IMG/VR virus record: IMGVR_UViG_2526164688_000024
Reading direction: 5' to 3' (one strand)
Origin: a virus
Lineage: Duplodnaviria > Heunggongvirae > Uroviricota > Caudoviricetes
Length of the DNA: 20,819 bases
Below are positions 457 through 20,819 of the stretch, one piece after another. Below the pieces are notes generated by a model, which was not told where the DNA came from, ran no database searches, and saw only the letters and a list, made by a program, of their open reading frames with translations. A program made the translations under genes and the position numbers. The stretch's first letter is position 1; each line of letters opens with the position of its first letter.

Positions 457-772
457 TGAGTTTTACCGGCACTTCTTCTGCACTGGTTCCGGCATCTGCC
501 CAGACAACCCCGACCAGCGGATCAGAGCCGCTGTTAGTCAGCTGAACTTTTCCGGACTTCAGATAAACCTTCTTACCCGTTTTCATGTCATCCGTTTTCA
601 GCTTAGGCAGCATAAACACACCTTCGGTCATGCCGTCGCCTGTTTCACCCTGTGGAATATCGGTCAGCGCCACCGCAAAAACATCGCCCACCTGCACCAG
701 ATCTCCGCTGCTGATGGCTGCACTGGCAACAATCGCCACCGTTTTTCCTTCTTCTACAAAATTCTTTGCCAT
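449..772 (-). CDS. DUF2190-like small head protein (putative decoration/cement protein)
   Basis: ORF track 449..817; likely start is the internal ATG at 772..770 preceded by GGAGACAG (gives MAKNFVEEGKTVAIV...). Gly/Val-rich ~107 aa protein immediately after the capsid gene; family assignment from memory of DUF2190 phage proteins. Confidence 0.45.
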   Translation of the reverse strand: MAKNFVEEGKTVAIVASAAISSGDLVQVGDVFAVALTDIPQGETGDGMTEGVFMLPKLKTDDMKTGKKVYLKSGKVQLTNSGSDPLVGVVWADAGTSAEEVPVKLNV

Positions 773-814
773 AACTGTCTCCGCACAGCCCCGTTCAGGG
801 GCTGATTTCAGGTA

Positions 815-835
815 CAAAAAAAGCCCTTACGGGCC
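815..835 (-). terminator. Rho-independent terminator-like hairpin after capsid gene (minus strand)
   Basis: GCCC-ttac-GGGC stem at 823..834 followed on the minus strand by a run of 7 U (A-run 815..821 on plus strand); a second 7-bp hairpin CAGCCCC-gttca-GGGGCTG at 786..804 lies just upstream of the next SD. Confidence 0.45.
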
Positions 836-858
836 ATCAGAGTTGTTGTCTGCGACGT

Positions 859-2817: not shown

Positions 2818-2863
2818 CCTGAACCAGGAATTATTCTTCGGACTGGTCGTCGGTGTGCTGCGG

Positions 2864-4339
2864 CTACTGTCGTTTCGTTGCGGCACTGCTGCCTCCTTTA
2901 TCACTGGCCGGATCGGTATCAAATACCAGGTCCAGCTTGCGGTTTTCATCAATTTCGGCCTTGCGCCGACGTTTGACATCATCCGGATTACGACCACCTG
3001 CACGTACCCAGTCTGATTCTGTCGCCGCTCCACCACGAATCTGGATTTTCCAGGCCTCAGCCTCCTTAACAGGATCAATCCACGGCATCACCGGTCCGGA
3101 ATACACCGCGGTATACAGTGAAGAACGGTCAAGATCGCGGGGTAGCCTGATAACACCGGATGCCACAGCCTGTTTCAGCCAGGCACGATACATCGGGCGG
3201 GTGACGGCACCAATAAACCAGTCCTGCAGGATCAGGTAGCCATCAGTGGATTCAACCAGCTCCTGACGCTGGGCGCTGTAAGTGCCGTTATAGTTGCGCG
3301 CTGTACTGGAAAAACTCAGACGACTGCCCGCCGCCACGGCACGCAACTGACCATTACGAAAAGTTTCAAGGTTAGGATTGGGGCGATCCGACTTCACCAT
3401 TCCGATTTCTTCGCCGGGTTTCAGATCGTCGTAAATAATGCCCGGCTGAATGGTAAGCTCACGTTCATTCTCCTTTCTGCCATTACCATCCGGTTCATAC
3501 GCTCTGCCCGTCGCCTTTCCGGATGTACATCCCCAGAGCAGCGGCGATCCTGCTGCAGTCAGCTCAGAATCTTCATATTCTTTCAGGGCACTGAGGCGGA
3601 TCAGCACACCGGACAACAAAGACGTCCCGCGCATCTGGTGCAGACGGCGAACAAATTTAAGATGCAGCATTCGCTCTGCATCCACTTCTTTGGTTTCCAT
3701 CTGCCGTCCGGATACGGGACGGCTTTTATACACCAGATATTTTTCGGGACGCCCCCAGTCATCAACAAACACGCCCTGATTCAGCCTGTTGCTCTCATCA
3801 CTGGTCATGGGAATAAAGTCCGGCTCGAGCGCCTCCAGCCAGAAATGAACACCGGCAGAAGGCGCCAGGCTGTTTATGCGCCCGGAAACCATCTGGGCAA
3901 ACACCTCACCATCGCGCAGCCAGGTACGAAGCATCAGACGTTCCAGCATCGGACGGGTAAACTGCCCGGTGACTTCCGGGCTGACAGACCATTCACTCCA
4001 TCGGGTGCGAATCTCCGCAGCCAGGTCACGGGCAATGGCCCCATTGCGTAATACCGGATGTGGCTCGACAATAATCCCGTTTTTCCCCACCACCCGTTCT
4101 TCCAGCTTGTCAAATACACCAATAACCAGATCGTGGTTGTTATCAAGGTAACGGGCCTGCTCACGTAACGACACGGCCCCGTACTGGCTTAACTGGTCGG
4201 CAGTTCGGTTCTCCCGTCGGGCTTTGTGTGTCCGCGTCGTTTTTACGGCCTCATAAGCCTGGATCACCGCACGGGAACGCAGCCTTGCCGCTTTCCATCC
4301 TGGTGAAAAAACGCCAATCACATCATCAAGAATTGCCAT
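2864..4339 (-). CDS. Portal protein (lambda gpB-like position)
   Basis: ORF track 2864..4411; probable start ATG 4339..4337 (MAILDDVIG...) overlapping the stop of the upstream W-like gene in a TGATG junction; ~491 aa, located between gpW-like and protease-capsid genes as in lambda. Confidence 0.65.
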   Translation of the reverse strand: MAILDDVIGVFSPGWKAARLRSRAVIQAYEAVKTTRTHKARRENRTADQLSQYGAVSLREQARYLDNNHDLVIGVFDKLEERVVGKNGIIVEPHPVLRNGAIARDLAAEIRTRWSEWSVSPEVTGQFTRPMLERLMLRTWLRDGEVFAQMVSGRINSLAPSAGVHFWLEALEPDFIPMTSDESNRLNQGVFVDDWGRPEKYLVYKSRPVSGRQMETKEVDAERMLHLKFVRRLHQMRGTSLLSGVLIRLSALKEYEDSELTAAGSPLLWGCTSGKATGRAYEPDGNGRKENERELTIQPGIIYDDLKPGEEIGMVKSDRPNPNLETFRNGQLRAVAAGSRLSFSSTARNYNGTYSAQRQELVESTDGYLILQDWFIGAVTRPMYRAWLKQAVASGVIRLPRDLDRSSLYTAVYSGPVMPWIDPVKEAEAWKIQIRGGAATESDWVRAGGRNPDDVKRRRKAEIDENRKLDLVFDTDPASDKGGSSAATKRQ

Positions 4340-4551
4340 CAGAACCTCGCCAGCCGGTACCCGGGATGCCCACGTCGTCGTGTAATCAGAGCCGCAAGGC
4401 GGCGCTCCCACTCCTGCCGCCCCTGCCGGATCTCAGATAAGTTTTCCATGGTCATCTGCTGACCATTAAAAGTGACGGATTTTCCGTCCAGCACCGCCAT
4501 TTCAGCTTCCGTATAACGCTGAATCATGGCTTCGATATCATTCTGGTTCAT
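4339..4551 (-). CDS. Head completion protein, lambda gpW-like
   Basis: 70-aa ORF; ATG at 4551..4549 overlaps terL stop (ATGA) with GGAGG 6 nt upstream; C-terminus ...RRRGHPGYRLARF resembles lambda gpW C-terminus (...RRRGPAGFYV). Confidence 0.55.
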   Translation of the reverse strand: MNQNDIEAMIQRYTEAEMAVLDGKSVTFNGQQMTMENLSEIRQGRQEWERRLAALITRRRGHPGYRLARF

Positions 4552-6650
4552 AACCATCCTCCGGAAGTCAGCCAGGGGTTAACATCGTCAGTTACTGTTT
4601 TCTTCCGTTTTTGTTTTTTAACAGGCGTGGATACCGGTTCCGGTGAGGGTGACGGTTCGGTACTGTCCGGGACACACTCCAGCCAGGTCTCCCGGCTCGC
4701 CCACTCCGGTGCATCCGGCCAGCGGATCTTTTCGTATCCATGCAGAATGACCAGAGCCTCGGCATACACCATCAGGTCAAAAGCTTCGTTGGCACCGCGA
4801 CCCGGCTTACTCCATTTCCCGTCACTGCTCCGCTCTTCATACGTCAGTTCGTCGTAAAACCAGCTCCCCAGCCAGTCAGGGAAATGCACATAGCCGGGAC
4901 CTGGCGAGTCACGCCATAACGCGTTATTCACCCGGTCTTTCAGGGCATCCGTCTGAAGAAGCCAGAGCGGCACATCACCTGCGGCCTGCGCCCGGCGGCC
5001 CGTTCGTCCGGTGTTATCAGGGAATGTACGGCTGATCAGTTTTGCGCGCCGGATGCTGTCGCCCTTAAACAGGTAAATACGTTTACCAAGGCCATCACGA
5101 CGGCAACGACGCCAGAATTTATAGGCATTATCAGTGACCCCGTCTTCACCGCCGGAGTCCACCGCCATTGCCATCAGTCGCATTTGTTGAGAAGGATCGG
5201 AGGCCAGCGGCCAGCTTTTATGAAAAACATCCGTCAGCAGGACATCCCAGTCTTCCGGATAGCTGGCCGGATCAATTCGCTGGCTCTCCCCGTCGCAGTC
5301 ACTGCGGCAATGACTGCGTGATGTTGTAACGATCAATAATCCAGCGTTCGCCACGACTGCCATAGCCCGTCACCTGAACCACAAAACGGCGATGACGTCC
5401 CGCCTGCACATCCACTGTCGCCACAAGGAAATTAACGCCATCCGGCACACCGCGGGAAGGAACTGGCTCTGCCCGCTGCTCAAGCAGTTCACTTTTTCGT
5501 TGCTCCATGCTGGCACGAGGAAGATAAGGCAATCCCCAGTCGGTGTTGATAACCGCCCTGAGTGTTTCTTCGCTTCCTGTCGCTTCATACTCCTGTTCTG
5601 CAGTCAGTAATTTGTAAACCAGTTGCGCCCAGGTCTGATACGCAGCAGCTGGCCCTTCCATCCAGAAACTGGCGATACGGGAGCGGCGCGGTTCACCGGA
5701 AACGTTGCCGTTACGATCAATGACCTGACCTTCACGCAACCAGACTCCTGCACTATTGAGCTCACGCTTTTTCTCCGCAGTGATAATGCCGCTGCAGTGC
5801 GGGCAAAGTAGATACGCCGCCTCACTGGCTTTAAAGGGATCCGGTTCATTACGGTAGCCGGTCATGGCATCCATGGCTGGCTGAAAATATTCACCGCAGT
5901 GCGGACATGACCAGTACCAGCGGCGGCGGTCACCACGATTGTAAAGGGAAAGAATACCAGTCGTCGGTGGCGCTTCATGAGGCGACTTACGTCGCCATTT
6001 GCTGTCGCAGATGTCACGTCCCGGCGAGCTCTCCACCAGAGTCATCCCGGCGGACATAAATGTGGTGGTACGTTTTAAGAGGCCAGGGAGAAACCATCAC
6101 CCTCGCTGTCGATATTCTCCGGAAAACGGTCGTAATCGGTTAAGGCGACAAACCGGTAATCCGACGACGACATAATGTTGACCGAGGGCCAACCAATTTT
6201 AAGGAACGAGCCATCCCTGAACGTCTTATCATGGACATTATTGTCGTTACGACGTGGACTCATTCTTTTCTTTACCGCCGCACTGCTTCTGAACGTTCTG
6301 TCGAGGCGCTTTTTAGAATGCTCGCGGGCCTTATCTTCGGTCATCTGCACAACGAGCATGTCCGAAGGATCGCAAACGATGGTATAGACAATCCATCCAT
6401 CGATCAGACCAATGGTCTTCCCTGTTCGCGCAGGACCAACAAAAATCACCGCATCGTATTCACGCGATGCCAGGCAGTTCATGGGCTCAATGATGTAGGG
6501 TGTCAGTTCAGGATCCCATGGCACCGAGTTACCAGCCCCCTTGGGAACACGCATGAATTTTTTAACAGCCTCCGAAATCGGCATGCGACGTGGTGGGGAA
6601 AATCCTGCCGATATGTCCCTTCCCAAATTTCGGGCTGATGAAAAACCCAT
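4548..6650 (-). pseudogene. Terminase large subunit (lambda gpA-like), split into three reading frames
   Basis: Three consecutive minus-strand ORFs (6075..6650, 5299..6057, 4548..5363) in three different frames. Piece 1 has a Walker-A-like VIFVGPARTGKT; piece 2 has WYWSCPHCGEYF (cf. lambda A ...VACPHCGEEQYL); piece 3 has NEAFDLMVYAEAL (cf. lambda A NEALDCFVYALAAL). Frame breaks near 6057-6077 and 5299-5363. Confidence 0.65.
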
Positions 6651-9886: not shown

Positions 9887-10248
9887 AATTATTACCTTTT
9901 GAAGAAATTAGCCCTTGGGCAGAATGGTCCGAAAAAAAATATCAGAGAGAAAAACCAACAAGGAAATCTCAAGAGGTACAAATAATAAAATTATAACAAT
10001 GACTGCTTCAGATAAATTTGTAACAAACCAGAACACCATTAACGCATGATTAACCACCCATAGCAAGGATTACTTTTGTAAAGAAAAACACAGCAATGAA
10101 AGAATAGCTTTATTTATTAATAAAACGTGTCATTCTGATTAAGACCTTTTATCTTACCCTTAAGATTTCAGGAATTTTGGCTCATGGAAGAGTCCTTTTT
10201 ATTTAAATTTTACATTCCGCGATGTAAATGTTCCGATTTAATATTACC

Positions 10249-11272
<1,024 letters not shown>

Positions 11273-11276
<4 letters not shown>

Positions 11277-11584
11277 ATATATTTATGATGAGGACGCTCG
11301 TGCTTATTGGCAGGATTTTCAATCTTAAAGGAGTACTGATGCTGCAGATAAGACTCAACTTTTTCTGACAATTTTTCTGCTACTTCCAGGAAGACTTGCC
11401 GGACGCTCCTTCTGGCTGCTGCCTCATAAAACTCCAGCGCAGCTCCTTCAACACGGTCCATGGCGACATCCAGGTCAAAAATTTCACCGTCAAAGCGTTC
11501 CTTGTCCTGTAAGGCTACAGTTACCGTAACTTTATTCTCAAAATTACGGACTCCTTTCACAACCAGTTCATAGTCTTGAGTCAT
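11273..11584 (-). CDS. ydfR: DUF1327-family protein between holin and endolysin (YdfR-like)
   Basis: 103-aa ORF with ATG 11584..11582; position and sequence match my recollection of K-12 Qin ydfR; function unknown. Confidence 0.55.
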
Positions 11585-11588
11585 TGGA

Positions 11589-11804
11589 TTACTCTCCTCT
11601 CGCAGCCTTACGCCTGTCTTCTTTAATCTTGAAATAAAGATTTGTCAGATACGTCAGCAGGCCAAAAACCAGGCTACCCAGCACACCGATTGCAGCCCAC
11701 TGTGACGGAGTTACTTTATCGAGTAACTGTAATGCCCAGAAACCAGCATTACCCGCCGATGTGCCATAGGCAACACCTGTTGTTAACTTATCCATTGATT
11801 TCAT
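11589..11804 (-). CDS. essQ: Class II pinholin (phage 21 S-like) with dual start MKSM
   Basis: ORF track 11589..11882; ATG at 11804 and second ATG at 11795 give [71 protein letters not shown], near-identical in pattern to recalled S21 holin ([71 protein letters not shown]). Confidence 0.85.
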
Positions 11805-12023
11805 ATCCTCACCCCGATGTACACGGATGGTGCAATATGTTTGAAAAAGATCGGAGTCTACGGGGTAGTTTTGACAGCACACGTTGTTCTCAACGGCGCT
11901 AAAGAAACATACACATTAAAAATGTGAGTAATTATTTTGAAAGAAAGTCATATATAAAATAATAATACGAGAAATGTTTTCATATTTAGTGTACTGTATA
12001 CGGCCATTATACAGGAAAAGCCT

Positions 12024-12194
12024 ATGTCAGAACGTAAAGACTCAAAATCACGCCGTAATTATCTCGTTAAATGTTCCTGCCCAAACTGCACCCAAGAGTC
12101 AGAACACAGTTTTTCAAGAGTACAAAAAGGTGCCCTTTTGATCTGCCCTCATTGCAACAAAGTATTCCAGACAAATCTTAAAGCTGTAGCCTGA
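12024..12194 (+). CDS. ynfU: Small zinc-ribbon protein (56 aa), YnfU-like
   Basis: ATG 12024 after AGGAAAAG; MSERKDSKSRRNYLVKCSCPNCTQESEHSFSRVQKGALLICPHCNKVFQTNLKAVA with two CxxC pairs; below ORF-track cutoff; matches my recollection of the Qin small protein YnfU. Confidence 0.65.
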   Translation: MSERKDSKSRRNYLVKCSCPNCTQESEHSFSRVQKGALLICPHCNKVFQTNLKAVA

Positions 12195-12251
12195 TTGATT
12201 TTATTAGTAACAAGTATTTTTTATATTTTAATAATATATTTAAAGCAGATA

Positions 12252-12276
12252 ATAAAAAACCCGCCTGAGCGGGTTT
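12252..12276 (-). terminator. Rho-independent terminator (strong on minus strand, weak on plus)
   Basis: ACCCGC-ctga-GCGGGT stem (12259..12274) followed on the minus strand by UUUUUUAU (plus-strand A-run 12254..12259). Confidence 0.55.
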
Positions 12277-12557
12277 GAGATTGTGGTGCTTTTTGTGGGA
12301 GTCATCCACTTACGCACTTTGTTTTGCGATGCCAGCAGTTAGCTTCTGCTGTGAAACTATTCATGCAGCAAACCTGCACTTCACCACAATGGTTAGCATA
12401 CTTTTCCTGATTAAGATTTTGCCAAATATGCTAGCCATTGTTTCATGTATTGGACCTCCTTACTTTTTATTAAAGAGATCCAATATTCACTACTCTGTCC
12501 GTATCTCTACTCAGGCATCAGCCTTCTTCGTTATCGTATACAGACGAGCGATGAATT

Positions 12558-12773
12558 TTAATCAGTAATGATGACATTTGCTGCTGCAGGACCTTTAGCA
12601 CCTCTCTCTATAGAGAAGGTAACCTTTTGACCTTCAAATAAGGTTCGATAATTATCATTCTGAATCGCAGAAAAATGCACAAACACATCTTTACTACCAT
12701 CAACAGGAGAAATAAAGCCGAAACCTTTATCAGCGTTAAACCATTTTACTAAACCAGTCATTTTATTTGACAT
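12558..12773 (-). CDS. cspB: Cold-shock protein CspB
   Basis: 71-aa [59 protein letters not shown]..., matches recalled CspB; 5' leader contains the csp 'upstream box' GCCGAAAGGC (minus strand, ~12790). Confidence 0.9.
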
Positions 12774-13071
12774 TCTACATTCCTTAACTTGAGCCTTTCG
12801 GCATAAATGGTTTGCATAACAGAAACGACTTCGTACTTAATTGGAGAGACTCAAAGAAGGAATAAGTGAATAACACCTGAAATGAGAACTGCTTTAGTAA
12901 ACTACTTCGTATATCGTCTGTTCTTCAAACCGACGCAGTCATTAACTCATAGTTGAACATATGAAGCAATGTTTATTTTAGACATCCAGCCACCTTCAAT
13001 CCTATCAAAAAAGTAGTTTTCTCCAGGAACGTGTGTATGGTGCACCAGGTTATCAGTATTAAGGAGTTTTT

Positions 13072-13312
13072 CTGTCCCCTAAAATGACAGGAATTGTCAA
13101 AAACTTTGACTACAAAAGCAGCAAAGGTCTTATATTCCCATCCGATGGCGTATCGATGCCCAGCTTCACGTTTCAGCTCTCAATCTTCGAGATGCAGAAG
13201 AAATTACCACAGGATTACGCGTGGAATTTTGCTGGATAAATGGTTCGCGTGGACCTTCAACTGCCAATGTTTATCCCGGGATGAGATTCAATATCTCTAT
13301 TGCCCCATTTAA
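13072..13312 (+). pseudogene. cspF: cspF remnant (start codon CTG, internal frameshift, no canonical stop)
   Basis: AAGGAG at 13061..13066 is followed 5 nt later by CTG TCC CCT AAA ATG ACA GGA ([26 protein letters not shown]; recalled CspF begins MSRKMTGIVK...); after ...SDG the CspF-like sequence continues in another frame ([42 protein letters not shown]) and runs on without the expected stop. Confidence 0.55.
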
Positions 13313-13313
13313 A

Positions 13314-13352
13314 GCACAAAAACCCGCTTATAAGCGGGTTTTCTACTTTTTT
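13314..13352. terminator. Bidirectional rho-independent terminator (candidate tR' of the late operon and cspF terminator)
   Basis: Perfect 20-bp palindrome AACCCGCTTA|TAAGCGGGTT (13321..13340) flanked by AAAAA upstream and TTCTACTTTTTTC downstream. Confidence 0.6.
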
Positions 13353-13374
13353 CTAAACGTCGGATACACAAAGC

Positions 13375-13417
13375 CCATCGTTGAGAAAATCTTATCCATA
13401 TTTTTTGAAAAATGCAA
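13375..13417 (-). promoter_or_regulatory. Candidate late promoter PR' with sigma70-dependent pause element, just downstream of Q
   Basis: Minus strand: -35 TTGCAT (13417..13412), 17-nt spacer, -10 TAAGAT (13394..13389), then AACGAT (13380..13375) at about +2..+7, the same -10-like pause-inducing hexamer I recall for lambda PR'; terminator hairpin follows within ~60 nt. Confidence 0.5.
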
Positions 13418-13448
13418 ACATCATGTCGCCATCTTCAGCAAAAATCAT

Positions 13449-14201
13449 TTATCTCGTCACCTTCCTCAATTGCGCTTCCGCGTATGCTTCTTCCTGCCAG
13501 CACTTTGTTACCAGTTTACCAATGACGTCCGCATACCCCTTATACCACTGATAATCGGTCAGGTCTGGTACCAGCTTCTGGACATGACGTCGTGCCAGCG
13601 TGGTCGGTAAACGACTAAACCGGTTTCCATTACAACGCCCACAAATCTTATATACCGGTACGCCATGAAACCGGGTTCTTTTTTCATCCAGAACAATCCC
13701 TTTACCCTTACACCCTCTGCACGCTGTGCTGACTTCGCCCTTACCATGGCAATGCTGACATAGTTCCTTCACCCATTCTTCCTTGATTACAGATTCCCCG
13801 CGTCTGTAGTGTTTCACCACTTCGCGCAATACATTATAAAATCCCGTACCTGAACAATGCTCACAGCGAGCCTTACTTGCCGCAGACCTGGAGTAATCAG
13901 CAAAGGCAAAATTCACGAGGTAAGGAATAATCTGTAACCGGATTTCTTCACTCAATTTGTTCAATGTCGGGTTATCCAGTGCCATCGCGTAATTTAGCAG
14001 GCCTTCAATCGCAAACTGAGCGTCCTGAACACCAACTTTTGCCAGAAATAAGGCCAACCCAAGTGGTGCTTTCGACTGCACCATCCCCTGCGCTGCCATT
14101 ACATCCGTAATTGTTAAACAACCGGTGCCTGTCGCTGGAGCGTCATCGCTCAATTTTGGAGATTTTGGGGAGTAATATTTTGGTAAGGCTTCAAGGTTCA
14201 T
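13449..14201 (-). CDS. quuQ: Late-gene antiterminator Q (phage 82/21-type, Zn-finger)
   Basis: ORF track 13449..14231; start ATG 14201..14199 after GGAGAA gives 250 aa ([16 protein letters not shown]...); multiple CxxC pairs ([30 protein letters not shown]); position immediately upstream of late promoter/lysis genes. Confidence 0.75.
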
Positions 14202-14214
14202 GCTCGTTCTCCAC

Positions 14215-15264
14215 TTACGCCAGTACGCCAATTGCCAGCGCGCGATCGATAAAACGAAATATCAGCTCCAGTTGGGAGCCATACTTCTCTTCAAATGCCA
14301 CTGTATCCGTATGCAGCTCGTTGTGATGCTTTCTGCACAAAGGCAACACAAAGAGATCATGTGCTTTTGTTCCCATTCCGCCCTGCCCGTGACCAATCAG
14401 ATGATGCGGATCGTCGGCTGGCATACCGCAGCAAGCACACGGCTGTGTCTTAACCCAACGTGTGTATTTCTCCTTAACCCAGCGGCGACGTTTAGGCAGC
14501 TTCATGAAAGATTCCGGAGACTCTGGATCAACGGTGATGCTTACCACCGCCTTTTCCTGTGGTGTTTTTTGTTGCTGGTGGGCGTAAGGCAACGGTGCAA
14601 GATTTTTTGTGCGTTGTTTCAATATGCTGGTGGCGGTCTGCTCTCCCGGTACGATGTCGCTTTCGCGGTACACCGAGCAGATTTTTTCCGCTGGTAATCC
14701 CAGCGAACGACGCGATACAGCCTCAGGTAGTGCATCCACCACCTGATTGCAGACCGCCCACCAGGATAATTCAGCCAAAGATAATTCCCGCTCCTGCGTA
14801 CCGCTTATTGCGTGACCGATGACGTCAATCATCCATGCTGTCAGATTTTGTTGAGCAAGCAGCTCCAGTGATTCCGATGTCTGGTCACGCAGTTGGTTGT
14901 CGCAGTGCCAACACAACACCATTGCGCCGGTACCATAACGGTGAATGACTGTTTCAGAGTGATGGTAATCGCCATTAGGCCACTGGCAGGATGTAACATG
15001 ACGTAATAGCCAGTCAGACAATGCGCCAACACCGCCAGCAGCACGAATCACCCGTTCGTTACTAAAAAACGGCAGCAATGTTTTGTCTTCCGCCAGCGAC
15101 TGGCGAACGGCAGGAACGACTCCGGATGGCAGATTACGCATGCTTTTTGGTTCCGGTTCCACCAGCACTCGAGGATTATGAAATATCTGTATGGATTCAC
15201 GGCCCGGCTTAAGGACCACCAGCCCAAGCTCAGGCACCAGAACAGGTCTAAGTAATACCCGCAC
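14215..15264 (-). CDS. ydfU: DUF968-family protein with C-terminal HNH-like Cys/His motif (YdfU-like)
   Basis: ORF track 14215..15303; probable GTG start at 15264..15262 with GGAGGT 4 nt upstream (349 aa); C-terminal CACCG...DDPHHLIGHG...CRKHHNELH resembles HNH/zinc-finger nuclease motifs. Confidence 0.6.
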   Translation of the reverse strand: MRVLLRPVLVPELGLVVLKPGRESIQIFHNPRVLVEPEPKSMRNLPSGVVPAVRQSLAEDKTLLPFFSNERVIRAAGGVGALSDWLLRHVTSCQWPNGDYHHSETVIHRYGTGAMVLCWHCDNQLRDQTSESLELLAQQNLTAWMIDVIGHAISGTQERELSLAELSWWAVCNQVVDALPEAVSRRSLGLPAEKICSVYRESDIVPGEQTATSILKQRTKNLAPLPYAHQQQKTPQEKAVVSITVDPESPESFMKLPKRRRWVKEKYTRWVKTQPCACCGMPADDPHHLIGHGQGGMGTKAHDLFVLPLCRKHHNELHTDTVAFEEKYGSQLELIFRFIDRALAIGVLA

Positions 15265-15265
15265 G

Positions 15266-15544
15266 TTACCTCCAGATCCGTTGCTGGAAAGTGCGGGACG
15301 CACGTGGTGGGCGTTCGGAGTAAGGCAATCTGACTGAGATTATCCAGTGACGGTAGTCGAGGCTAAGGGCTTTCTTAACCTCGTATCCGCGCCTGCGGTA
15401 ACACTGAATTATCCATTCAGCCTGCTCTTCAGTGCATGGAGGGTGTTGGAACCATTCAGACTTGAATGCGTGAGAATACCGCTCGTGCGTGCAGACAAGA
15501 ACGGGCGAATTATCAGAATTGTAATATTTTACGTTGCGTGCCAT
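15266..15544 (-). CDS. Hypothetical basic protein (92 aa), translationally adjacent to ydfU
   Basis: ATG 15544..15542 after GGAGAAAA; stop TAA at 15268..15266 is 1 nt from the ydfU GTG start; Cys/His-containing, Arg-rich C-terminus; no recognised homologue. Confidence 0.4.
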   Translation of the reverse strand: MARNVKYYNSDNSPVLVCTHERYSHAFKSEWFQHPPCTEEQAEWIIQCYRRRGYEVKKALSLDYRHWIISVRLPYSERPPRASRTFQQRIWR

Positions 15545-15610
15545 CGGTTTTCTCCGGTGGCACGGTGTTACTCAGCGGGAGTTCAGCCCCGCGCAAGATT
15601 GTAGATGAGT

Positions 15611-15862
15611 TTATTCTTCTGCAAAAGCTGAAAAGCCTGCTTTTATTCCGATCTCTTTCAGTGCCTGTAATGAAGTGACAAACTCACCTTCGCGCAAGAT
15701 AAATCCGTCTGTCACTCGACCATCCACAAAATTAATTAACGCAGCCCCATTCTTTCGCAAACACATAATGCGGTAATGACTAACAAAATTTCCATTTTCA
15801 ACGCACACAGCATAGAGGCCATCTTCACAAAAAATTTTACGCAGTTCTTCGATGTTCATCAT
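15611..15862 (-). CDS. rem: Rem-like small prophage protein (83 aa)
   Basis: 83-aa ORF MMNIEELRKIFCEDGLYAVCVENGNFVSHYRIMCLRKNGAALINFVDG...; size and position (between ydfU and hokD) match K-12 Qin rem as I recall it. Confidence 0.6.
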   Translation of the reverse strand: MMNIEELRKIFCEDGLYAVCVENGNFVSHYRIMCLRKNGAALINFVDGRVTDGFILREGEFVTSLQALKEIGIKAGFSAFAEE

Positions 15863-15980
15863 CAGAATCCTTCCGGATAATTAGCTCTCCCCTTTAAGGG
15901 ACCATCCCTCTTATCCCTGCGCGCTACTTAAGTATTTTTGATTCTATTCCGGCACCGTCCAGAACTTCAAACGCGTTGAA

Positions 15981-16010
15981 AATAAAAACAAAAACCCGCC
16001 GAAGCGGGTT
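15981..16010 (-). terminator. Rho-independent terminator after relB-relE-hokD operon (minus strand)
   Basis: AACCCGC-cgaa-GCGGGTT stem (15993..16010) followed on the minus strand by UUUUGUUUUUAUU (plus-strand A-rich 15981..15993). Confidence 0.55.
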
Positions 16011-16078
16011 AAGTGCGGGTGCGTTGAGGATGCCTGCCACATCAGAGGTGGCGAGGGATTTCTCCCTCGCCGGGTTTC

Positions 16079-16234
16079 TTACTCCTCAGGTTCGTAAGCT
16101 GTGAAGACAGCGACCTCCGTCTGGCCGGTTCGGATTCGTACCTCGCAGAGGTCTTTCCTCGTTACCAGTGCCGTCACTATGACGGTTAAACAGATGACGA
16201 TCAGGGCGATTAACATCGCCTTTTGCTGCTTCAT
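16079..16234 (-). CDS. hokD: Hok-family membrane toxin HokD (RelF), 51 aa
   Basis: Not in ORF track (<60 aa). Minus-strand ATG 16234..16232 to TAA 16081..16079 translates MKQQKAMLIALIVICLTVIVTALVTRKDLCEVRIRTGQTEVAVFTAYEPEE, matching recalled HokD; perfect 9-bp hairpin GGCGAGGGA-tttc-TCCCTCGCC (16051..16072) just 3' of the gene. Confidence 0.9.
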   Translation of the reverse strand: MKQQKAMLIALIVICLTVIVTALVTRKDLCEVRIRTGQTEVAVFTAYEPEE

Positions 16235-16305
16235 AGCCTGCTTCTCCTGTCAACGCAAAGCAGAAGTGTCACCTTCGGTGCGAAACAGAGATGTCATGCT
16301 TTGGT

Positions 16306-16593
16306 TCAGAGAATGCGTTTGACCGCCTCGCTATATACTTCCGAGCGTTCTCTTTTCCCAACAGAAATCACGAAAACGACAACTTTCTCGTCTATAACCT
16401 GGTATACAAGGCGATAGCCTGAAGACCGGAGCTTAATCTTGTAACAATCAGGCATACCACGGAGCTTGTTTGCTTCAATCCGGGGTGACTCAAGTACTTC
16501 AACCAGCTTCTTTTTCAACTGTTCACGTACCGTCGAGCCCAGCTTTCGCCATTCCTTTAGTGCCCGCTCGTCAAAATCCAGAAAATACGCCAT
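16306..16593 (-). CDS. relE: RelE mRNA interferase toxin
   Basis: 95-aa ORF MAYFLDFDERALKEWRKLGSTVREQLKKKLVEVLESPRIEANKLRGMPDCYKIKLRSSGYRLVYQVIDEKVVVFVISVGKRERSEVYSEAVKRIL, matches recalled E. coli RelE; start overlaps relB stop (TGATG). Confidence 0.95.
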   Translation of the reverse strand: MAYFLDFDERALKEWRKLGSTVREQLKKKLVEVLESPRIEANKLRGMPDCYKIKLRSSGYRLVYQVIDEKVVVFVISVGKRERSEVYSEAVKRIL

Positions 16594-16832
16594 CAGAGTT
16601 CATCCAGCGTCACACGTACTGGCTTAGGATTACGAAGCCGTTCTTTCACTATCTCCACAAGTTCAGCATCTTCATCACTCAGGAGTGTCTGTTTGAACGG
16701 CAAGCGTTCATTGTCAGCGATATACTCGAGCATGAGACGAAGCGCTTCAGAAGGAGTTACACCCATTTTTTCAAGCGCGGCGTAAGAACGCGCTTTAAGT
16801 TCATCGTCAATACGCAGGTTAATGCTACCCAT
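16593..16832 (-). CDS. relB: RelB antitoxin
   Basis: 79-aa ORF MGSINLRIDDELKARSYAALEKMGVTPSEALRLMLEYIADNERLPFKQTLLSDEDAELVEIVKERLRNPKPVRVTLDEL, matches recalled RelB (RHH antitoxin). Confidence 0.95.
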   Translation of the reverse strand: MGSINLRIDDELKARSYAALEKMGVTPSEALRLMLEYIADNERLPFKQTLLSDEDAELVEIVKERLRNPKPVRVTLDEL

Positions 16833-16842
16833 GTCTTACACC

Positions 16843-16894
16843 TCTTGTAATTACAAATGTCATTACAAGTATCGCACTACAACATGCTTAGGGC
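16843..16894 (-). promoter_or_regulatory. relBE promoter with relO operator
   Basis: Minus strand TTGCCC-N17-GATACT followed by CTTGTAATGACATTTGTAATTACAAG (hexad repeats of relO) immediately upstream of the relB SD/ATG. Confidence 0.7.
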
Positions 16895-17162
16895 AAGTCA
16901 CGAAGGAAGTCAGAAAGTAGTCGTAAGAACGGTGATCACTGTCCGCTTTGTGCCAGGAGCAGCCATTGCTAAGTCCATCCTGTATTGTGCAGGTCAGCTC
17001 GTTTTTAAAGAGTCCGGCCATCATCTTACTGGTACAGACACCATATACTTTGTGACGGTCAGGCTACATATGCACAACTCAACTTATTCATCTATTTTTT
17101 GCTTTAGCATGTCAGTGTTGCTTTCTCGTCGGCGGGTGAGCGGTGACCTGACCTGTCGATAA
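16857..17162 (+). CDS. ydfV: YdfV-position ORF (101 aa), doubtful
   Basis: ORF of the size annotated as ydfV in K-12 between relB and flxA, but it starts inside the relO operator, has no clear SD and the protein is low-complexity; kept at low confidence only because of the K-12 precedent. Confidence 0.2.
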   Translation: MSLQVSHYNMLRASHEGSQKVVVRTVITVRFVPGAAIAKSILYCAGQLVFKESGHHLTGTDTIYFVTVRLHMHNSTYSSIFCFSMSVLLSRRRVSGDLTCR

Positions 17163-17314
17163 AGGAACGTAGCACGTTTTATGCAACACCCGCATGCGGC
17201 AGAAAATTATTGCCGAACGTTTACCCCTGTCAACAAGCTTTACTTTCTGAGGCGCGCCAGCCCGCGAGGAAAACAATCTGAACATCAAACAATTAATGAC
17301 ACAAGAAATACGAT

Positions 17315-17341
17315 TAAAGATTTTTTTGTGCATGCCGATAG
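17315..17341 (+). promoter_or_regulatory. Sigma-28 (FliA) class 3 promoter of flxA
   Basis: TAAAGATT (17315..17322) - 11 nt - GCCGATAG (17334..17341), versus FliA consensus TAAAGTTT-N11-GCCGATAA; SD AAAAGGAGAA and ATG follow at 17351..17367. Confidence 0.65.
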
Positions 17342-17364
17342 TGCTTTTTTAAAAGGAGAAATCT

Positions 17365-17697
17365 ATGTCTGTCACAATTCAGGGAAATACCTCAACCGTT
17401 ATTTCAAACAACTCCGCCCCGGAAGGAACATCAGAAATAGCCAAAATCACAAGACAAATTCAGGTGCTGACTGAAAAGCTTGGGAAAATCTCATCGGAAG
17501 AGGGGATGACGACACAGCAGAAAAAAGAAATGGCTGCATTGGTACAGAAGCAAATTGAAAGCCTCTGGGCTCAACTGGAGCAGTTGTTAAGGCAGCAGGC
17601 AGAGAAAAAGAATGAAGACGCGACAGTTCAGCCTGATAAAAAAGAAGAGAAAAAAGACGATACAAATACCGCTGGCACCATTGATATTTACGTCTAA
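17365..17697 (+). CDS. flxA: FlxA (FliA-regulated protein), 110 aa
   Basis: ORF MSVTIQGNTSTVISNNSAPEGTSEIAKITRQIQVLTEKLGKISSEEGMTTQQKKEMAALVQKQIESLWAQLEQLLRQQAEKKNEDATVQPDKKEEKKDDTNTAGTIDIYV; matches recalled FlxA; preceded by a FliA-type promoter. Confidence 0.85.
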   Translation: MSVTIQGNTSTVISNNSAPEGTSEIAKITRQIQVLTEKLGKISSEEGMTTQQKKEMAALVQKQIESLWAQLEQLLRQQAEKKNEDATVQPDKKEEKKDDTNTAGTIDIYV

Positions 17698-17711
17698 GTG
17701 ACAGCCGTATT

Positions 17712-17737
17712 GTGGCCCTCATCGGGCCACTTTTCGC
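17712..17737 (+). terminator. Rho-independent terminator of flxA
   Basis: GTGGCCC-tcatc-GGGCCAC stem (17712..17730) followed by TTTT. Confidence 0.6.
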
Positions 17738-18059
17738 CATCAGCCTTTTCTTTAAAGACATATTATCTTTGTATCATTTCTGATAGTTAACATTACAAGA
17801 TATAAGTAATGGACGCACTCCCAATTAGTCTATTTAAATCGCCACGAGTTTAACTGACAACCCATGATCAATTATGAATTGCAACTATTTCTGTAGTCAC
17901 TTTTGTGGGGACAGTCCACAAAACTGCCAACTTCCGCTTCTTGCTCTTAGCGGACATTAGCATAGGCTATTTGCCATAACGCCTCATTACGCGCACCGCC
18001 CAGACTGACTCAGCGCGTTTCTGGCATATCCCCGGTAAAACAAGTAACAAACCACCCGA

Positions 18060-19560
18060 AAATGAACACCAGAAACGCGACTTAAGAATCTACCCTATGA
18101 ATGGATATGCACTCAACCGAATCGATCTTGGTTTCAATCTTTTTTATCGGGATCAGGCTTCTTTTTAGGTAACTTCGGGGGCTTAACTTGCTGATGACTT
18201 TGCGTTCGGCGCGTAAGCCAGGGATGGTCAGCTTTAGGTTTAACATAGTATTTTGAGCGTAAATCAATACGGGCATTATCCACTCGTTCATGGACACTCT
18301 TTTCATCATCCAGTGGTATAGGCTCCGGGCCATCAACATACTTTTCCCAGCCCAGCGCTTTCCCGTCATACAGAACGTTAATTTCACCGTCAAAGTTCTC
18401 GCATACAGTAACAACCGAATGCCTAAGTCGATATCCCCGGCCCTCACTGCGTACCTGAAACGCACTGCTTTTGTACTGGAAAGTGAGATTTTTAGACAGA
18501 ACGCGCTTCGCCTGTAGGCTGAAGATATAACCCAGTTCCTCTTCAGAATGGTGCACATCAAGATGAGCATTATCAGTAGTACGAGGCGACGTAGCGAACC
18601 GGTTGTTATAGGCTTCAATAAAGGTCGGCAACCATGCATTTGCTGTTTCAATATCACTGATATTCTGAAGCCGCATTTCTTTGACCAGCCTGTCCTGTAG
18701 TGTCTGATTGGCGCGCTCTACCCGCCCTTTTGCCTGCGGGCTGTTGGCATGGATTGGCTCGATGCCCAGTGTCTTTATCGCACGAGTGAACTGGGTCAGC
18801 TCACCTTCCCGCTCTGGGTTATTTACCCTGAATATACTGTGTCTATCAGAGTAGAGAGCGAGCGGTACGCCATGATCATTAAGGTAACCCCGGAGGGTTT
18901 CCATGTAAGCCCGGGTTGTTTCAGCAGGCACAAAACGCAACGCCATCAACGCACTGGTGGCATCATCAATGAAAACGATCAGTGTACATCTGGGGCCTCG
19001 ATTTTCAAACCAGTCATGAGGTGAGCCATCAATCTGGATCAGTTCACCGTAAGATGGTCGTCGCATGCGGCGTTGATATATACGGGCAATTTTACGACGG
19101 CGTTCACGCCATAACCCCTCTTCTATCATCCACTTTCTGAGAGTTTCAACGGATAAAGATAAACCGTGTATCTCACGCAATTTTTCGCACGCAAACGTAG
19201 GTCCAAAATCAGCGTAACGGCCTTTGAGGAGTGAAATTACTGTTGCTCTGAATTCAGTAGAAAAGGAATTATTAGGACGCTTTCCACGTCGGGGGGAAAC
19301 CAGACCAGAAGGCCCTTCATTTCTATACCGTTGCACCAGACGTTTAACCTGCCGAATAGAAATGCCAATGCGTGCCGCAGCTTGTTCCTGAGTAATATGT
19401 CGATTAATTGACTCCTGAATAATCTGAAGTCGGTGGAGTTCCTTATGACTCATCGTAACAGTCTCTTTGATCATGAAAAATCCCCCAGAGAATTGTCTGG
19501 GGACATTTTAGAATGGTTCAAAGGGGACATTACAGCTTGGTGTTAACAATAGCCTGCTTC
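18060..19560 (-). mobile_element. Insertion sequence carrying the IS481-like transposase (boundaries approximate)
   Basis: Single transposase ORF inserted ~400 bp after the flxA terminator where K-12 Qin has intK/dicCA; I could not identify terminal inverted repeats by eye, so ends are estimated only. Confidence 0.35.
18134..19474 (-). CDS. DDE transposase with N-terminal HTH and integrase-core (rve) domain, IS481-family-like
   Basis: 446-aa ORF; N-terminal HTH region (EQAAARIGISIRQVKRLVQRY), catalytic-core motifs IQIDGSPHDWF ... LYSDRHSIF ... SPQAKGRVERANQTLQDRL consistent with a D,D(35)E integrase fold. Family assignment is tentative. Confidence 0.75.
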   Translation of the reverse strand: MIKETVTMSHKELHRLQIIQESINRHITQEQAAARIGISIRQVKRLVQRYRNEGPSGLVSPRRGKRPNNSFSTEFRATVISLLKGRYADFGPTFACEKLREIHGLSLSVETLRKWMIEEGLWRERRRKIARIYQRRMRRPSYGELIQIDGSPHDWFENRGPRCTLIVFIDDATSALMALRFVPAETTRAYMETLRGYLNDHGVPLALYSDRHSIFRVNNPEREGELTQFTRAIKTLGIEPIHANSPQAKGRVERANQTLQDRLVKEMRLQNISDIETANAWLPTFIEAYNNRFATSPRTTDNAHLDVHHSEEELGYIFSLQAKRVLSKNLTFQYKSSAFQVRSEGRGYRLRHSVVTVCENFDGEINVLYDGKALGWEKYVDGPEPIPLDDEKSVHERVDNARIDLRSKYYVKPKADHPWLTRRTQSHQQVKPPKLPKKKPDPDKKD

Positions 19561-20224
19561 TCCTTGCCTTTCGGCACGTAAGAGGCTAACCTACATATGT
19601 CTAGCATGAAATTGGCCTCAGATTAATGTTAAGCGTCTTGCAGGACGCGTAATGTTAACTGGGGCTTTTCTCTATCTGCCGTTGGTGTTCATGCCCGAGG
19701 CAGATAGCCTCAAGCACCCGCAGCCATTCTACTTAACTACCGTTACCTCGCCAATGTGAAATCAGTCAGAAAGGCGATCCATAAGAACAATAGCAAGACA
19801 ATAAATCGCCATTACAGCCGTAATAGCCAGCGCACATTTGAGAACCAGCACCACAACCTCCTGTATTGGACGTAGACCAGTCCTGATGAATATGAGGCTG
19901 TCTCGTCAGTGATTCAATACAACTATTGGGTATAGTTTCTCTGATTTTTTCTGTGGAAATGGGGCACAACCACTAGTCACCACCAGCACTTCTTTTAATA
20001 CGCAAAGTCCGACACAAGCTAACCTTCTAGTCCGCTTTGAGCGAAAAACAGCCATAATTTAGTGCCACGTATATAATGATAGAGCTATTCAAGCTAGCAA
20101 TTCACATGTAAAAATTCAGAGGGTAGAAGCACATAGTTATAAATGTTGGCTCCATCGACAAATTGCGGTCTCAAGTACATTTATTAATGTTGCCCCCGCA
20201 TTAACAAATCATCAAGGTGACGAC

Positions 20225-20578
20225 ATGGACGATATTAATATCAGCCTCGACGAACTTAACACTATTGATTTATCCCCCTTAATCCAGAGTAAGCTGCCAG
20301 TTACCTGCTTTGATATCACAAAGTATCTTTCTAGCCTAGGTGATGGAAGAGCGGAGATAAGACTGCTAACCCATATTTGCGGTTTTCACTTTCGTCCCGA
20401 AAATCCACAGGTACCATTTGGTCCGTGCTTTCAAAGCAGCCAAGGTAGATCTGCAATTCCGGATGACATTAACGGGTTGTCGCTGGAGGTACTTTCTCAA
20501 TTTTGCCCGACGATAGAGCTACCCGAACTTCAAGCTCGTATTGCTGATACACTTTGGGTTCGTAGACTGGCCCCCTGA
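20225..20578 (+). pseudogene. N-terminal fragment (112 native codons) of an unrecognised gene, truncated by IS2 insertion
   Basis: ATG 20225 after AAGGTGA; MDDINISLDELNTIDLSPLIQSKLPVTCFDITKYLSSLGDGRAEIRLLTHICGFHFRPENPQVPF...; reading frame runs into the IS2 left end at 20563 and stops inside it (last residues RRLAP are IS-encoded). Confidence 0.45.
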
Positions 20579-20819
20579 ATCTCCAGACAACCAGTATCAC
20601 TTATTTAAGTGATAGTCTTAATACTAGTTTTTAGACTAGTCATTGGAGAGCAGATGATTGATGTCTTAGGACCGGAGAAACGCAGACGGCGTACCACACA
20701 GGAAAAGATCGCAATTGTTCAGCAGAGCTTTGAACCAGGGATGACGGTCTCCCTCGTTGCCCGGCAACATGGTGTAGCAGCCAGCCAGTTATTTCTCTGG
20801 CGTAAGCAATACCAGGAAG
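20563..20819 (+). mobile_element. IS2 (IS3 family), left end and start of insC; element continues beyond window
   Basis: TAGACTGGCCCCCTGAATCTCCAGACAACC... at 20563 matches recalled IS2 left terminal repeat; followed by insC start. Confidence 0.8.
20654..20819 (+). CDS. insC: IS2 transposase OrfA (InsC), N-terminal part
   Basis: ATG 20654 after GGAGAG; translation [55 protein letters not shown] matches recalled IS2 InsC; not in ORF track because it is cut by the window end. Confidence 0.85.

Follow-up and report, generated by a model that had tools for sequence, protein, structure and literature searches.

The window analysed in this study is an entire draft contig of 20,819 bp (AIGK01000031.1), the end of which falls within an IS2 element. 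The locus sits in the interior of a defective Qin-like lambdoid prophage of E. coli, with the Q/rem/hokD region on one side and the replication/immunity genes on the other, and not at the prophage edge where a preliminary description of this DNA had placed it. The terminase gene of this prophage is fragmented. Positions 10234-16248 of the window align with positions 1-6016 of the ATCC 25922 sequence (L001), annotated hokD included. The interval 19549-20564 is 100% identical to the interval between hokD and a gene for a HEPN-domain protein in E. coli ATCC 25922, and the match ends there; the same interval was also matched at 100% in about 148 other complete genomes.

As had been proposed, the segment is trapped between two mobile elements, an ISEsa1-bearing transposon on the left and IS2 on the right. 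It had further been regarded as a low-coding stretch with a single ORF and as the least explained part of the window. The ORF is real, but the stretch also holds an RNA gene region (hokD leader/sok). The small ORFs in 19650-20060 were rejected as genes, since none is annotated in related genomes and the interval is partly RNA leader. The stretch from 19561 to 20578 is in fact ordinary and can be explained as a cut-off hokD leader followed by the IS2-inactivated start of a catalogued candidate anti-phage RNase gene. We suggest that it would represent two broken pieces of a Qin-like prophage, one for each mobile-element insertion (the transposon and IS2).

The relBE-ISEsa1 transposon and the orphaned hokD leader

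The left element is a 3,301-bp transposon (16248-19548, minus strand) that carries relE, relB, ydfV, flxA and an ISEsa1 (IS1202-family) transposase gene (18134-19474, minus strand; RefSeq/PLSDB annotation). It was delimited by its matching ends, TGTCAACGCAAAGCAGAAGTGTCACC... at 16248 and ...GGTGTTAACA at 19548, whose inverted repeats match at 21 of 28 positions; no site in the window other than 16248 reaches 20 matches in 32 positions with the other transposon end. The termini read TGTCAAC... (from 16248) and ...GTTAACA (to 19548), and the inner repeat GGGGACAT is present twice at the transposase end, so that the TGT...ACA ends, imperfect inverted repeats, inner repeats and target duplication of the IS1202 family were all found. 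The element had earlier been called IS481-like, but the LZ_Tnp_IS481 match (17.7 bits) falls below its cut-off of 22.2, and both RefSeq and PLSDB assign it to IS1202-like ISEsa1. We considered the 1.6 kb homologous to ISEsa1 as the mobile unit and rejected it, as its inner boundary has no inverted-repeat match (best 14/26).

The transposon is bracketed by an exact 15-bp direct repeat, the target-site duplication ATAGCCTGCTTCTCC (left copy 16233-16247, right copy 19549-19563), which spans the hokD Shine-Dalgarno sequence through the first two bases of its ATG. In ATCC 25922, where the site is empty, the sequence is present once (L001 6001-6016).

Immediately to the right lies the complete but orphaned 5' leader of the hokD mRNA (19549-19719, minus strand), with a truncated mok start and the sok target region. 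It matched the Rfam family RF01794 (sok/hok-leader) over model positions 1-157 of 157 (about 19548-19719, minus strand) with 106.9 bits (E = 2.3e-24), the gathering score being 59 bits, and its RNA fold gave a z-score of -3.65. The 9-bp-stem hairpin reported previously, CTATCTGCC-N18-GGCAGATAG at 19672-19707, is present as described and is moreover the first (5') stem of this match on the minus strand. A promoter scan of 19540-20300 returned a sole promoter-like site, TTGGCG-17-TAGAAT (19726-19754, minus strand; a consensus match only), which would start the hok leader near 19719. On the opposite strand, a putative Sok antisense RNA (19599-19669, plus strand) is suggested by a hairpin (19614-19665) followed by UUUU, with a fold z-score of -4.3 for the hairpin and U-run. 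Its putative promoter, TTGCCT (19564-19569), 17 nt, TAACCT (19587-19592), is weak, was read by eye and lies below the scan threshold.

The hokD ORF itself is intact (16079-16234, minus strand; 51 aa, translation MKQQKAMLIAL...EPEE; identified from the ATCC 25922 alignment) and is the last gene of a relB-relE-hokD operon. Rather than being contiguous with the RF01794 leader, it lies behind relBE, about 3.3 kb away from its own leader, which stops at the transposon end at 19548. Since hokD and the leader are contiguous in ATCC 25922, the idea that the two never formed a contiguous pair is contradicted. We propose that transposon entry at the hokD ribosome-binding site split the leader from the ORF; hokD would now end the relBE operon, while the old hok promoter and leader would face into the transposase gene. 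Co-transcription of relBE and hokD is known from K-12, in which this leader has been lost entirely by deletion.

The relBE-ISEsa1 unit was also observed in other hok loci, each with a different 15-bp duplication, and 15-bp duplications of differing sequence were present in the window and in two plasmids. At hok starts the target duplications ranged from 13 to 15 bp, with 15 bp in most copies. In its layout the ISEsa1 transposase and the relBE operon form the two opposite ends and enclose variable cargo (ydfV-flxA in the window; nickel and chromate resistance elsewhere). In many replicons the hok Shine-Dalgarno/start site is the specific target of the relBE/ISEsa1 transposon, an observation more novel than the cargo gene itself.

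We consider it reasonably probable that 19549-19719 is the scar of a site-specific, hok-targeting relBE-ISEsa1 transposon family, of which we found no description, and that the truncated gene separately represents a real candidate single-protein HEPN defence family. Since the window keeps both junctions of the insertion that placed relBE before hokD, relBE would travel on an ISEsa1-type transposon aimed at hok loci. If true, the insertion would have made the classic relB-relE-hokD (relBEF) operon of E. coli and would account for ISEsa1 being reported without a target duplication, and transposase expression after insertion may come under the control of the hok promoter, leader and Sok. The question bears on the spread of toxin-antitoxin modules, on the frequent inactivation of chromosomal hok loci and on the delimiting of ISEsa1.

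The truncated cargo gene and its junction with IS2

ATCC 25922 and CFSAN064036 are homologous up to L001 6191 (window 19739) and again from L001 8679, which lies beside a DUF977 gene. The region 19740-20224 (plus strand) contains, by this homology break, the left boundary of a 2.49-kb variable cargo module and the upstream region of its HEPN gene. The ORF that follows (20225-20578, 117 aa) is well initiated, as had been described: AAGGTGA (20214-20220) and 4 nt precede the ATG at 20225. Its codons 1-113 (20225-20563, plus strand) are those of the 595-aa DUF7380/TPR-like/HEPN (DUF4209) protein WP_000340969.1 and are 100% identical to those in ATCC 25922. The match to the intact gene ends at 20564 and IS2 begins at 20563, which bears out the earlier view of a real gene truncated by IS2, although the exact number of surviving codons is 113 and not about 112. 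Four IS2-encoded codons follow, and then a stop at 20576-20578. From 20563 the sequence is the left end of IS2 (20563-20819, plus strand; TAGACTGGCCCCC...), and it shares 98% identity with the IS2 annotated in strain DEC9B. It comprises the terminal repeat of this IS3-family element and, at 20654, the beginning of its first transposase ORF, where the called gene matches HTH_Tnp_1. IS2 would thus have inserted after codon 113 of the cargo gene.

An exact search for the gene/IS2 junction found it absent from species-representative genomes, and it is in none of 5,426 complete E. coli genomes. Together with the fact that the draft contig stops 257 bp into IS2, this raises the alternative that the junction is an assembly artefact at a contig end and that the gene is intact in the strain. 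We regard this as very improbable, since the gene passes into IS2 exactly at base 1 of the terminal repeat, as a real insertion would give, draft contigs normally break within IS copies, and IS2 or IS3-family insertions were found in or beside the HEPN gene in other strains.

In the earlier description the gene could not be matched to any protein family. It is recognisable: the fragment matched Pfam DUF7380 (PF24098) with 83.8 bits (E = 1.7e-23; model positions 4-121 of 177), above the gathering cut-off of 27 bits, and the full-length protein also contains DUF4209, which has been known as a HEPN family since 2013. Of the N-terminal domain, only some two thirds are left in the window copy. Since the IS2 insertion removed the repeats and the nuclease domain, the window copy is a pseudogene, and any function for it is moot with only 113 codons left. 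The opposite proposal, that the 117-aa ORF is a functional small protein derived by neo-functionalisation of a DUF7380 fragment, could appeal to the retained Shine-Dalgarno sequence, start codon and upstream region, and to the exact product having been called on three contigs in public assemblies, namely the source contig and two similar short contigs, the only ones found. However, the product spans no more than 4-121 of the 177 positions in the DUF7380 model, has its last four codons from IS2 and is broken directly after the conserved ELxARxADxLW motif of a family otherwise fixed at about 600 aa, and the junction occurs in no complete E. coli genome. We therefore find this proposal scarcely credible, and treat the ORF as the remnant of an inactivated gene.

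As a dead copy beside a known RNA element, the truncated gene matters little. The gene is also already known, being annotated by RefSeq in about 150 complete E. coli genomes and catalogued by Pfam and PADLOC. The intact gene, on the other hand, is a good and cheap candidate for a phage-defence assay, since only one gene is involved, its DUF7380/TPR/HEPN architecture is fixed and its family ranks within the top 15 systems of the P2 hotspot by abundance (Rousset et al. 2022).

Architecture, distribution and predicted role of the intact protein

In WP_000340969.1 (595 aa), Pfam places an N-terminal alpha/beta DUF7380 domain (residues 4-166), which is followed by TPR-like repeats and a C-terminal DUF4209 HEPN domain (484-573). 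The full-length allele scored 118.6 bits against DUF7380 and matched both PADLOC PDC-S39 models over residues 43-581 (E = 2.1e-102 and 7.3e-102), a match that the window fragment overlaps only at residues 43-113. The architecture of DUF7380 with DUF4209 is represented by 2,444 cluster representatives, and both domains were present in all nine of the full-length members sampled, at about 600 aa; in view of this fixed architecture, the idea of DUF7380 as a swappable sensor joined to other effectors was dropped. The AlphaFold model of the intact protein (pLDDT 89.9) has no membrane-spanning region or signal peptide. No NCBIfam model matched the full protein and PHROGs gave only families of unknown function, while profile searches of solved structures gave weak TPR-like matches for the whole protein and none for the HEPN domain.

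The DUF4209 domain has the all-alpha HEPN fold, and the HEPN Rx4-6H motif is found in the intact allele as the invariant R546-N-Q-L-A-H551 (RNxxxH, Rx4H), a region that the window copy, ending at residue 113, no longer has. Across 41 homologues, the most distant at 24% identity, neither R546 nor H551 varies, nor does any residue of a second polar cluster formed by Q482, E484, S486 and R488. Such invariance is expected of an active site and argues against the domain being a non-catalytic HEPN-like module, as in MtlR regulators, within a TPR-binding scaffold or regulator, which we consider improbable. It is consistent with the work of Anantharaman et al. (2013, PMC3710099), who placed DUF4209 in the HEPN superfamily and predicted it to be an active RNase.

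The genomic setting of the family agrees with the earlier suggestion that the gene is accessory or defence cargo, as judged from its variable Qin slot, its PDC-S39 match and its relatives in the P2 old/tin hotspot. In Qin-like prophages the HEPN gene is the occupant of a variable slot for one gene, bounded by the hok leader and the DUF977 gene; other strains have degraded methyltransferase genes or an Sll1717-family P-loop ATPase there instead. Homologues were observed between the Q antiterminator and the holin of an Enterobacter prophage, at a prophage end in Citrobacter, and flanked by IS elements about 6 kb from Cap15/CD-NTase genes in Oleispira. Several members, in V. cholerae, Aeromonas and Pseudomonas, lie in small islets surrounded by housekeeping genes, where no known defence genes adjoin them, which counts against a defence role. 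Members of PDC-S39 also lie in the gpA-gpQ (old/tin) hotspot of P2-like phages, where the proteins match the models at E values of 1e-84 and 2e-67; in abundance 'DUF4209' ranks 13th among the systems listed for this hotspot, with 193 occurrences (Rousset et al. 2022, supplement).

This distribution bears on whether the intact DUF7380-TPR-HEPN protein instead serves the prophage, as a lytic RNase (host mRNA shut-off, RNA processing) or as a lysogenic-conversion or regulatory factor. Positions between Q and holin or next to the early region are classic for morons, and HEPN domains also act in RNA processing, for example in Las1 and Ire1/RNase L (PMC3710099). Against this, the family is found outside prophages as well, in solitary islets and as IS-flanked cargo; the reference-phage genes old and tin and several cloned systems of the P2 gpA-gpQ hotspot exclude other phages; and the relative of the E. 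coli host prophages present in the window has a fragmented terminase gene. Moreover, the gene alternates with unrelated single genes in the Qin slot, and is therefore dispensable for the phage. We consider a prophage-serving role unlikely.

Most likely, the intact protein is a candidate single-chain HEPN RNase in phage defence. It would be an auto-inhibited RNase whose N-terminal and TPR parts sense a phage cue and release RNA cleavage by the HEPN domain, probably as a dimer; cleavage would halt the infected cell, whereby the lysogen population would be shielded from other phages. HEPN RNases characteristically cleave without a metal, usually at a composite site built by a dimer. The two-piece origin of the segment and this predicted auto-inhibited defence RNase, taken jointly, form the account that we favour with some confidence. 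PDC-S39 is a computational candidate only: full-text literature on DUF4209, DUF7380 and PDC-S39 yielded a domain survey and PADLOC output lists, with no experiment found, and no DUF4209 system is among those validated by Rousset et al. (2022).

Comparison with known systems

The hokD region resembles a hok/sok locus in that the whole Rfam sok/hok-leader model is matched, including its 5' stem, and the cognate hokD ORF is intact. It differs in that the leader and toxin ORF are 3.3 kb apart and hokD is transcribed with relBE instead. Like the ISEsa1/IS1202 elements of Harmer and Hall (2023, PMC10132070), the transposon has TGT...ACA ends, imperfect inverted repeats and a second internal copy of the inner part of the repeat near each end. 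Their entry for ISEsa1 gives a length of 1,609 bp and neither a detectable target duplication nor a known target, whereas the mobile unit described here is larger (2.6-12.8 kb), always has relBE at its far end, and has a 15-bp duplication in most copies checked, its usual site being the hok start.

With regard to PDC-S39, the 113 codons in the window are 100% identical to an intact allele that matches the models end to end, but the window copy lacks residues 114-595, the HEPN domain included. The HEPN RNases of toxin and abortive-infection systems (HEPN/MNT toxins, Csm6, RnlA/LsoA and the C-terminal HEPN of AbiA) differ from the E. coli protein, which has no adjacent antitoxin gene (MNT or Dmd-like) and no CARF, RT or kinase domain. 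Ahead of its HEPN domain, whose RNase activity is a prediction, it has a unique DUF7380 domain and TPR-like repeats, and it is only 6-19% identical in sequence to any of the solved HEPN proteins. Bacterial members of the DUF4209 HEPN family have been described as fused to TPR and located in R-M-related operons (Anantharaman et al. 2013, PMC3710099). The eukaryotic C6orf70/ERMARD, to which DUF4209 was originally assigned, shares the Pfam DUF4209 (PF13910) region; it has a single transmembrane region and a predicted ER localisation (PMC3710099), whereas the bacterial proteins are encoded on mobile elements and the protein modelled here has neither a membrane span nor a signal peptide.

Truncation of a HEPN gene by IS2

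The 117-aa open reading frame at 20225-20578, which starts behind AAGGTGA-N4 as reported in the preliminary description, belongs to a larger gene that is intact elsewhere. Window positions 19549-20564 were 100% identical to E. coli ATCC 25922 and to ~148 further complete genomes, and the matching stretch in ATCC 25922 begins at the hokD start codon and extends into a gene for a 595-aa protein annotated as 'DUF4209 domain-containing protein' (WP_000340969.1; hereafter the HEPN gene). Identity breaks off at 20564, and from 20563 on the sequence is IS2 (98% identity to an annotated copy), beginning with its terminal repeat, so that 113 native codons are left, followed by 4 IS2 codons and a stop. 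Truncation by IS2 had been proposed earlier and is borne out, the count of surviving codons moving from ~112 to 113. The window is the complete draft contig AIGK01000031.1 (GCA_000249895.2; 20,819 bp), whose last 257 bp are IS2, and the gene/IS2 junction was not found in any complete E. coli genome or any species-representative genome. Both observations bear on a rival explanation, that the junction is an assembly artefact; in other strains an IS3-family insertion lies inside the HEPN gene, or IS2 just upstream of it.

No protein family had been recognised for the fragment, yet its 113 codons matched Pfam DUF7380 (E 1.7e-23). In the intact protein DUF7380 covers residues 4-166 and DUF4209 residues 484-573, and an AlphaFold model (pLDDT 89.9) comprises an N-terminal alpha/beta domain (~1-115), helical repeats and a C-terminal helical domain. 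The window copy keeps two thirds of the N-terminal domain, to just past a conserved ELxARxADxLW motif; the repeats and the nuclease domain are wholly missing, and this copy is dead. A profile of the N-terminal domain, run against 1.84 billion cluster representatives, picked out 2,444, nearly all of ~590-650 aa with the domain N-terminal, and DUF4209 was also present in 9/9 sampled full-length members, so the architecture is fixed and not modular. This architecture speaks against the rival reading, a very unlikely one, in which the 117-aa ORF with its start signal in place is a functional fragment.

Anantharaman et al. 2013 (PMC3710099) counted DUF4209 among the HEPN families, predicted it to be an active RNase family and described bacterial members fused to TPR. 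Across 41 aligned homologues, with identities down to 24%, R546 and H551 of the HEPN Rx4H motif (RNQLAH) were invariant, as was a second cluster formed by Q482, E484, S486 and R488. These invariant residues look like an active site and so speak against the rival reading of the C-terminal domain as a non-catalytic HEPN-like scaffold. Homologues of ~600 aa occur in Enterobacterales, Vibrio, Aeromonas, Shewanella, Pseudomonas, Oleispira and many cyanobacteria.

The hokD leader and the transposon that displaced it

The adjoining DNA had been described as a low-coding stretch, a view revised by a full match to RF01794, the Rfam model of the sok/hok leader, at 19548-19719 of the minus strand (106.9 bits, gathering score 59, E 2.3e-24). 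The 9-bp hairpin noted earlier at 19672-19707 is present and is the long 5' stem of this model. A promoter-like site, TTGGCG-17-TAGAAT (19754-19726, minus strand), is positioned to start the hok leader RNA. A strong plus-strand hairpin followed by UUUU (19614-19665; fold z -4.3) fits a Sok terminator, and a putative Sok promoter was matched by eye only. The last position of the model is the hok AUG, which in the window lies right against the left mobile element, and the hokD ORF is intact at 16079-16234 (minus strand), ~3.3 kb from its leader. Between rem and hokD, a sub-threshold Rfam isrK match with a terminator-like hairpin (15989-16076, minus strand; 25.7 bits against 50) is probably just the hokD/relBEF terminator.

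The window aligned with ATCC 25922 in two blocks, 10234-16248 and 19549-20564, whose 16-bp overlap on the reference corresponds to ATAGCCTGCTTCTCCT at 16233-16248 and again at 19549-19564. Between these copies lie relE, relB, ydfV, flxA and the gene for a 446-aa transposase (18134-19474, minus strand). This left element had been called IS481-like; the IS481 leucine-zipper model stayed under threshold, and RefSeq and PLSDB assign the transposase to the IS1202-like ISEsa1. TGTCAACGCAAAGCAGAAGTGTCACC, starting at 16248, matched the reverse complement of the opposite element end, TGTTAACACCAAGCTGTAATGTCCCC, at 21/28 positions, and 16248 was the sole site on either strand of the window to match that end at 20 or more of 32 positions. 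Based on the matching ends and the flanking direct repeat, 16248-19548 is a single transposon, bounded by TGT...ACA and flanked by a 15-bp target duplication; its empty site is represented by ATCC 25922. The flanking repeat is identical over 16 bp and counted as 15, since the final T may be the transposon's own end. The duplication takes in the Shine-Dalgarno sequence of hokD together with the AT of its start codon.

The flxA-ISEsa1-leader arrangement was present in 773 complete E. coli genomes. In K-12 MG1655 a deletion runs from inside the ISEsa1-type transposase gene to ydfX/dicC, and ydfW (locus L018, 1647174-1647850) is the C-terminal fragment of that transposase. This deletion took away sok and the hokD leader, the transposon end beside the transposase gene, the cargo slot and the DUF977/replication genes still present in related Qin-like prophages.

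The relBE-ISEsa1 transposon at other hok loci

Copies of this transposon were located in the window (16233-19563), in comparison loci L011 (2043-5349) and L015 (1016-13858), and in L023-L038. In the Enterobacter asburiae plasmid pEnt261 it occupies the same position in a different hok locus, with another 15-bp duplication, ATGGCCTTCTTCTCC. The Phytobacter plasmid pMRY16-398_1 carries a 12,843-bp version with the same ends at a third hok locus, flanked by GGAGAAGTCAGCTAT, with ncrABCY, chrBA and other cargo between the relBE and transposase ends. A scan of species-representative genomes found the exact 26-nt transposase-side end at 16 loci, 15 of them informative. In six of the informative loci it directly adjoined the final model position of an Rfam-scoring hok leader, in five more a hok-leader-like sequence (judged by eye), in one, inversely oriented, the ORF side of hok, and in three unrelated sequence. 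In Kluyvera sp. STS39-E (L038, 6628-6743) this end overlaps a match to the Rfam small RNA isrO (58.8 bits) in place of a hok leader.

Units with both ends measured 2,575, 3,301, 4,487, 6,093 and 12,843 bp. A relBE end of ~713 bp was common to all, and an intact ~1.6-kb ISEsa1 end to all except the degraded 2,575-bp copy. Flanking repeats were 15 bp, apart from L026 (13-14 bp) and L023 (an imperfect 15 bp), and the duplication was locus-specific wherever both ends were read. The transposon was found at the Shine-Dalgarno/start codon of hok in no fewer than four distinct loci, with one copy inverse. By these sequence comparisons, relE-relB, a variable cargo and the ISEsa1 transposase make up a single transposon that is bounded by TGT...ACA and duplicates 13-15 bp (mostly 15 bp). 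The 1.6-kb ISEsa1-homologous part was considered as the mobile unit and rejected, having no inverted repeat at its inner edge.

The hok promoter-like site and leader, mok start included (19549-19754, minus strand), aim into the transposon end and the same-strand transposase gene. The transposase end faces the hok leader in 11 of the 12 hok-associated copies, and hok read-through or Sok-dependent control over the transposase is possible.

ISEsa1 has been described as 1,609 bp long, with an undetectable target duplication and a target not known (Harmer and Hall 2023, PMC10132070). The unit found here differs in its relBE end and its 13-15-bp duplication; if true, a relBE-bearing full unit would explain why ISEsa1 was reported without one. 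A passage in PMC6379469, citing Ramisetty and Santhosh 2016, has relBE of plasmid origin integrated upstream of hokD. Transposition of the unit into a hok site would account for how the relB-relE-hokD operon arose. No description of the transposon or its hok specificity was found in the limited literature set searched.

The prophage slot and the predicted role of the HEPN protein

The locus had been placed at a prophage edge, but it lies in the interior of a Qin-like prophage, with phage genes on both sides: capsid/protease and portal genes, a three-ORF terminase gene, lysis genes, Q, rem and hokD upstream in the window, and DUF977, YdaT, cro/cI-type genes and dicB downstream in related genomes. 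The prophage is defective, since its lambda-type terminase large subunit (4548-6650, minus strand) is spread over three successive ORFs that hold pieces of the GpA ATPase and nuclease. Between ATCC 25922 and CFSAN064036 homology stops 191 bp past the hokD start (window 19739) and restarts beside the DUF977 gene, which marks out a 2.49-kb cargo module holding the HEPN gene only. Other strains have a degraded methyltransferase and hypothetical genes in this slot; in ETEC1738 a 495-aa Sll1717-family P-loop ATPase (L016, 7674-9161), with a weak PADLOC match to PDC-M28C (E 4e-5), replaces the HEPN gene. The HEPN gene was found in 152/5,426 complete E. coli genomes, always chromosomal and at ≥99% identity, and in 147 of them its DNA was full length.

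Elsewhere, homologues lie between the Q antiterminator and holin genes of an Enterobacter kobei prophage, at a prophage end in Citrobacter, between IS elements ~6 kb from Cap15/CD-NTase genes in Oleispira, and in two-gene islets in Vibrio cholerae and Aeromonas. In V. cholerae and Aeromonas media a conserved gene for ~160 aa with no Pfam match follows the HEPN gene (L005 9958-10440, L020 10912-11391), and in the cyanobacterium Trichocoleus (L022 10926-11348) the homologue overlaps a PIN-domain gene by 4 bp. Both products are possible HEPN partners without an E. coli counterpart.

The intact protein matched the phage-defence candidate PDC-S39 of PADLOC-DB end to end (E 2e-102); it has no NCBIfam model, and in PHROGs it matched solely families without assigned function. 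In P2-like phages, distant members (22-24% identity; PDC-S39 at E 1e-84 and 2e-67) lie in the gpA-gpQ hotspot, which in P2 holds old and tin. In the supplement of Rousset et al. 2022 'DUF4209' is the 13th most abundant entry of the P2 hotspot (193 occurrences) and appears again at rank 55; it is not among the systems that they report as validated. No published experimental test of the DUF7380/DUF4209 family was found in the literature searched.

The gene, truncated here by IS2, thus encodes in its intact form a protein with a HEPN motif and fold, and it is distributed as a single mobile gene associated with hotspots. We hold the identity of the parts to be almost certain, and lean slightly towards phage defence as the role of the intact protein. 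It would be an auto-inhibited HEPN RNase in which the DUF7380 and TPR parts sense a phage cue and unlock RNA cleavage, probably via dimerisation by analogy with other HEPN enzymes, and this cleavage would abort infection. In the rival reading the RNase serves the phage, for which its place among prophage genes might speak; the PDC-S39 match and the P2 hotspot point to defence. All that lies within 19561-20578 falls in catalogued families, namely the hok/sok leader (Rfam), DUF7380/DUF4209 (Pfam), PDC-S39 (PADLOC) and IS2, so that the finding is already known in its parts, and DUF4209 itself was already included in the 2013 HEPN survey (PMC3710099).
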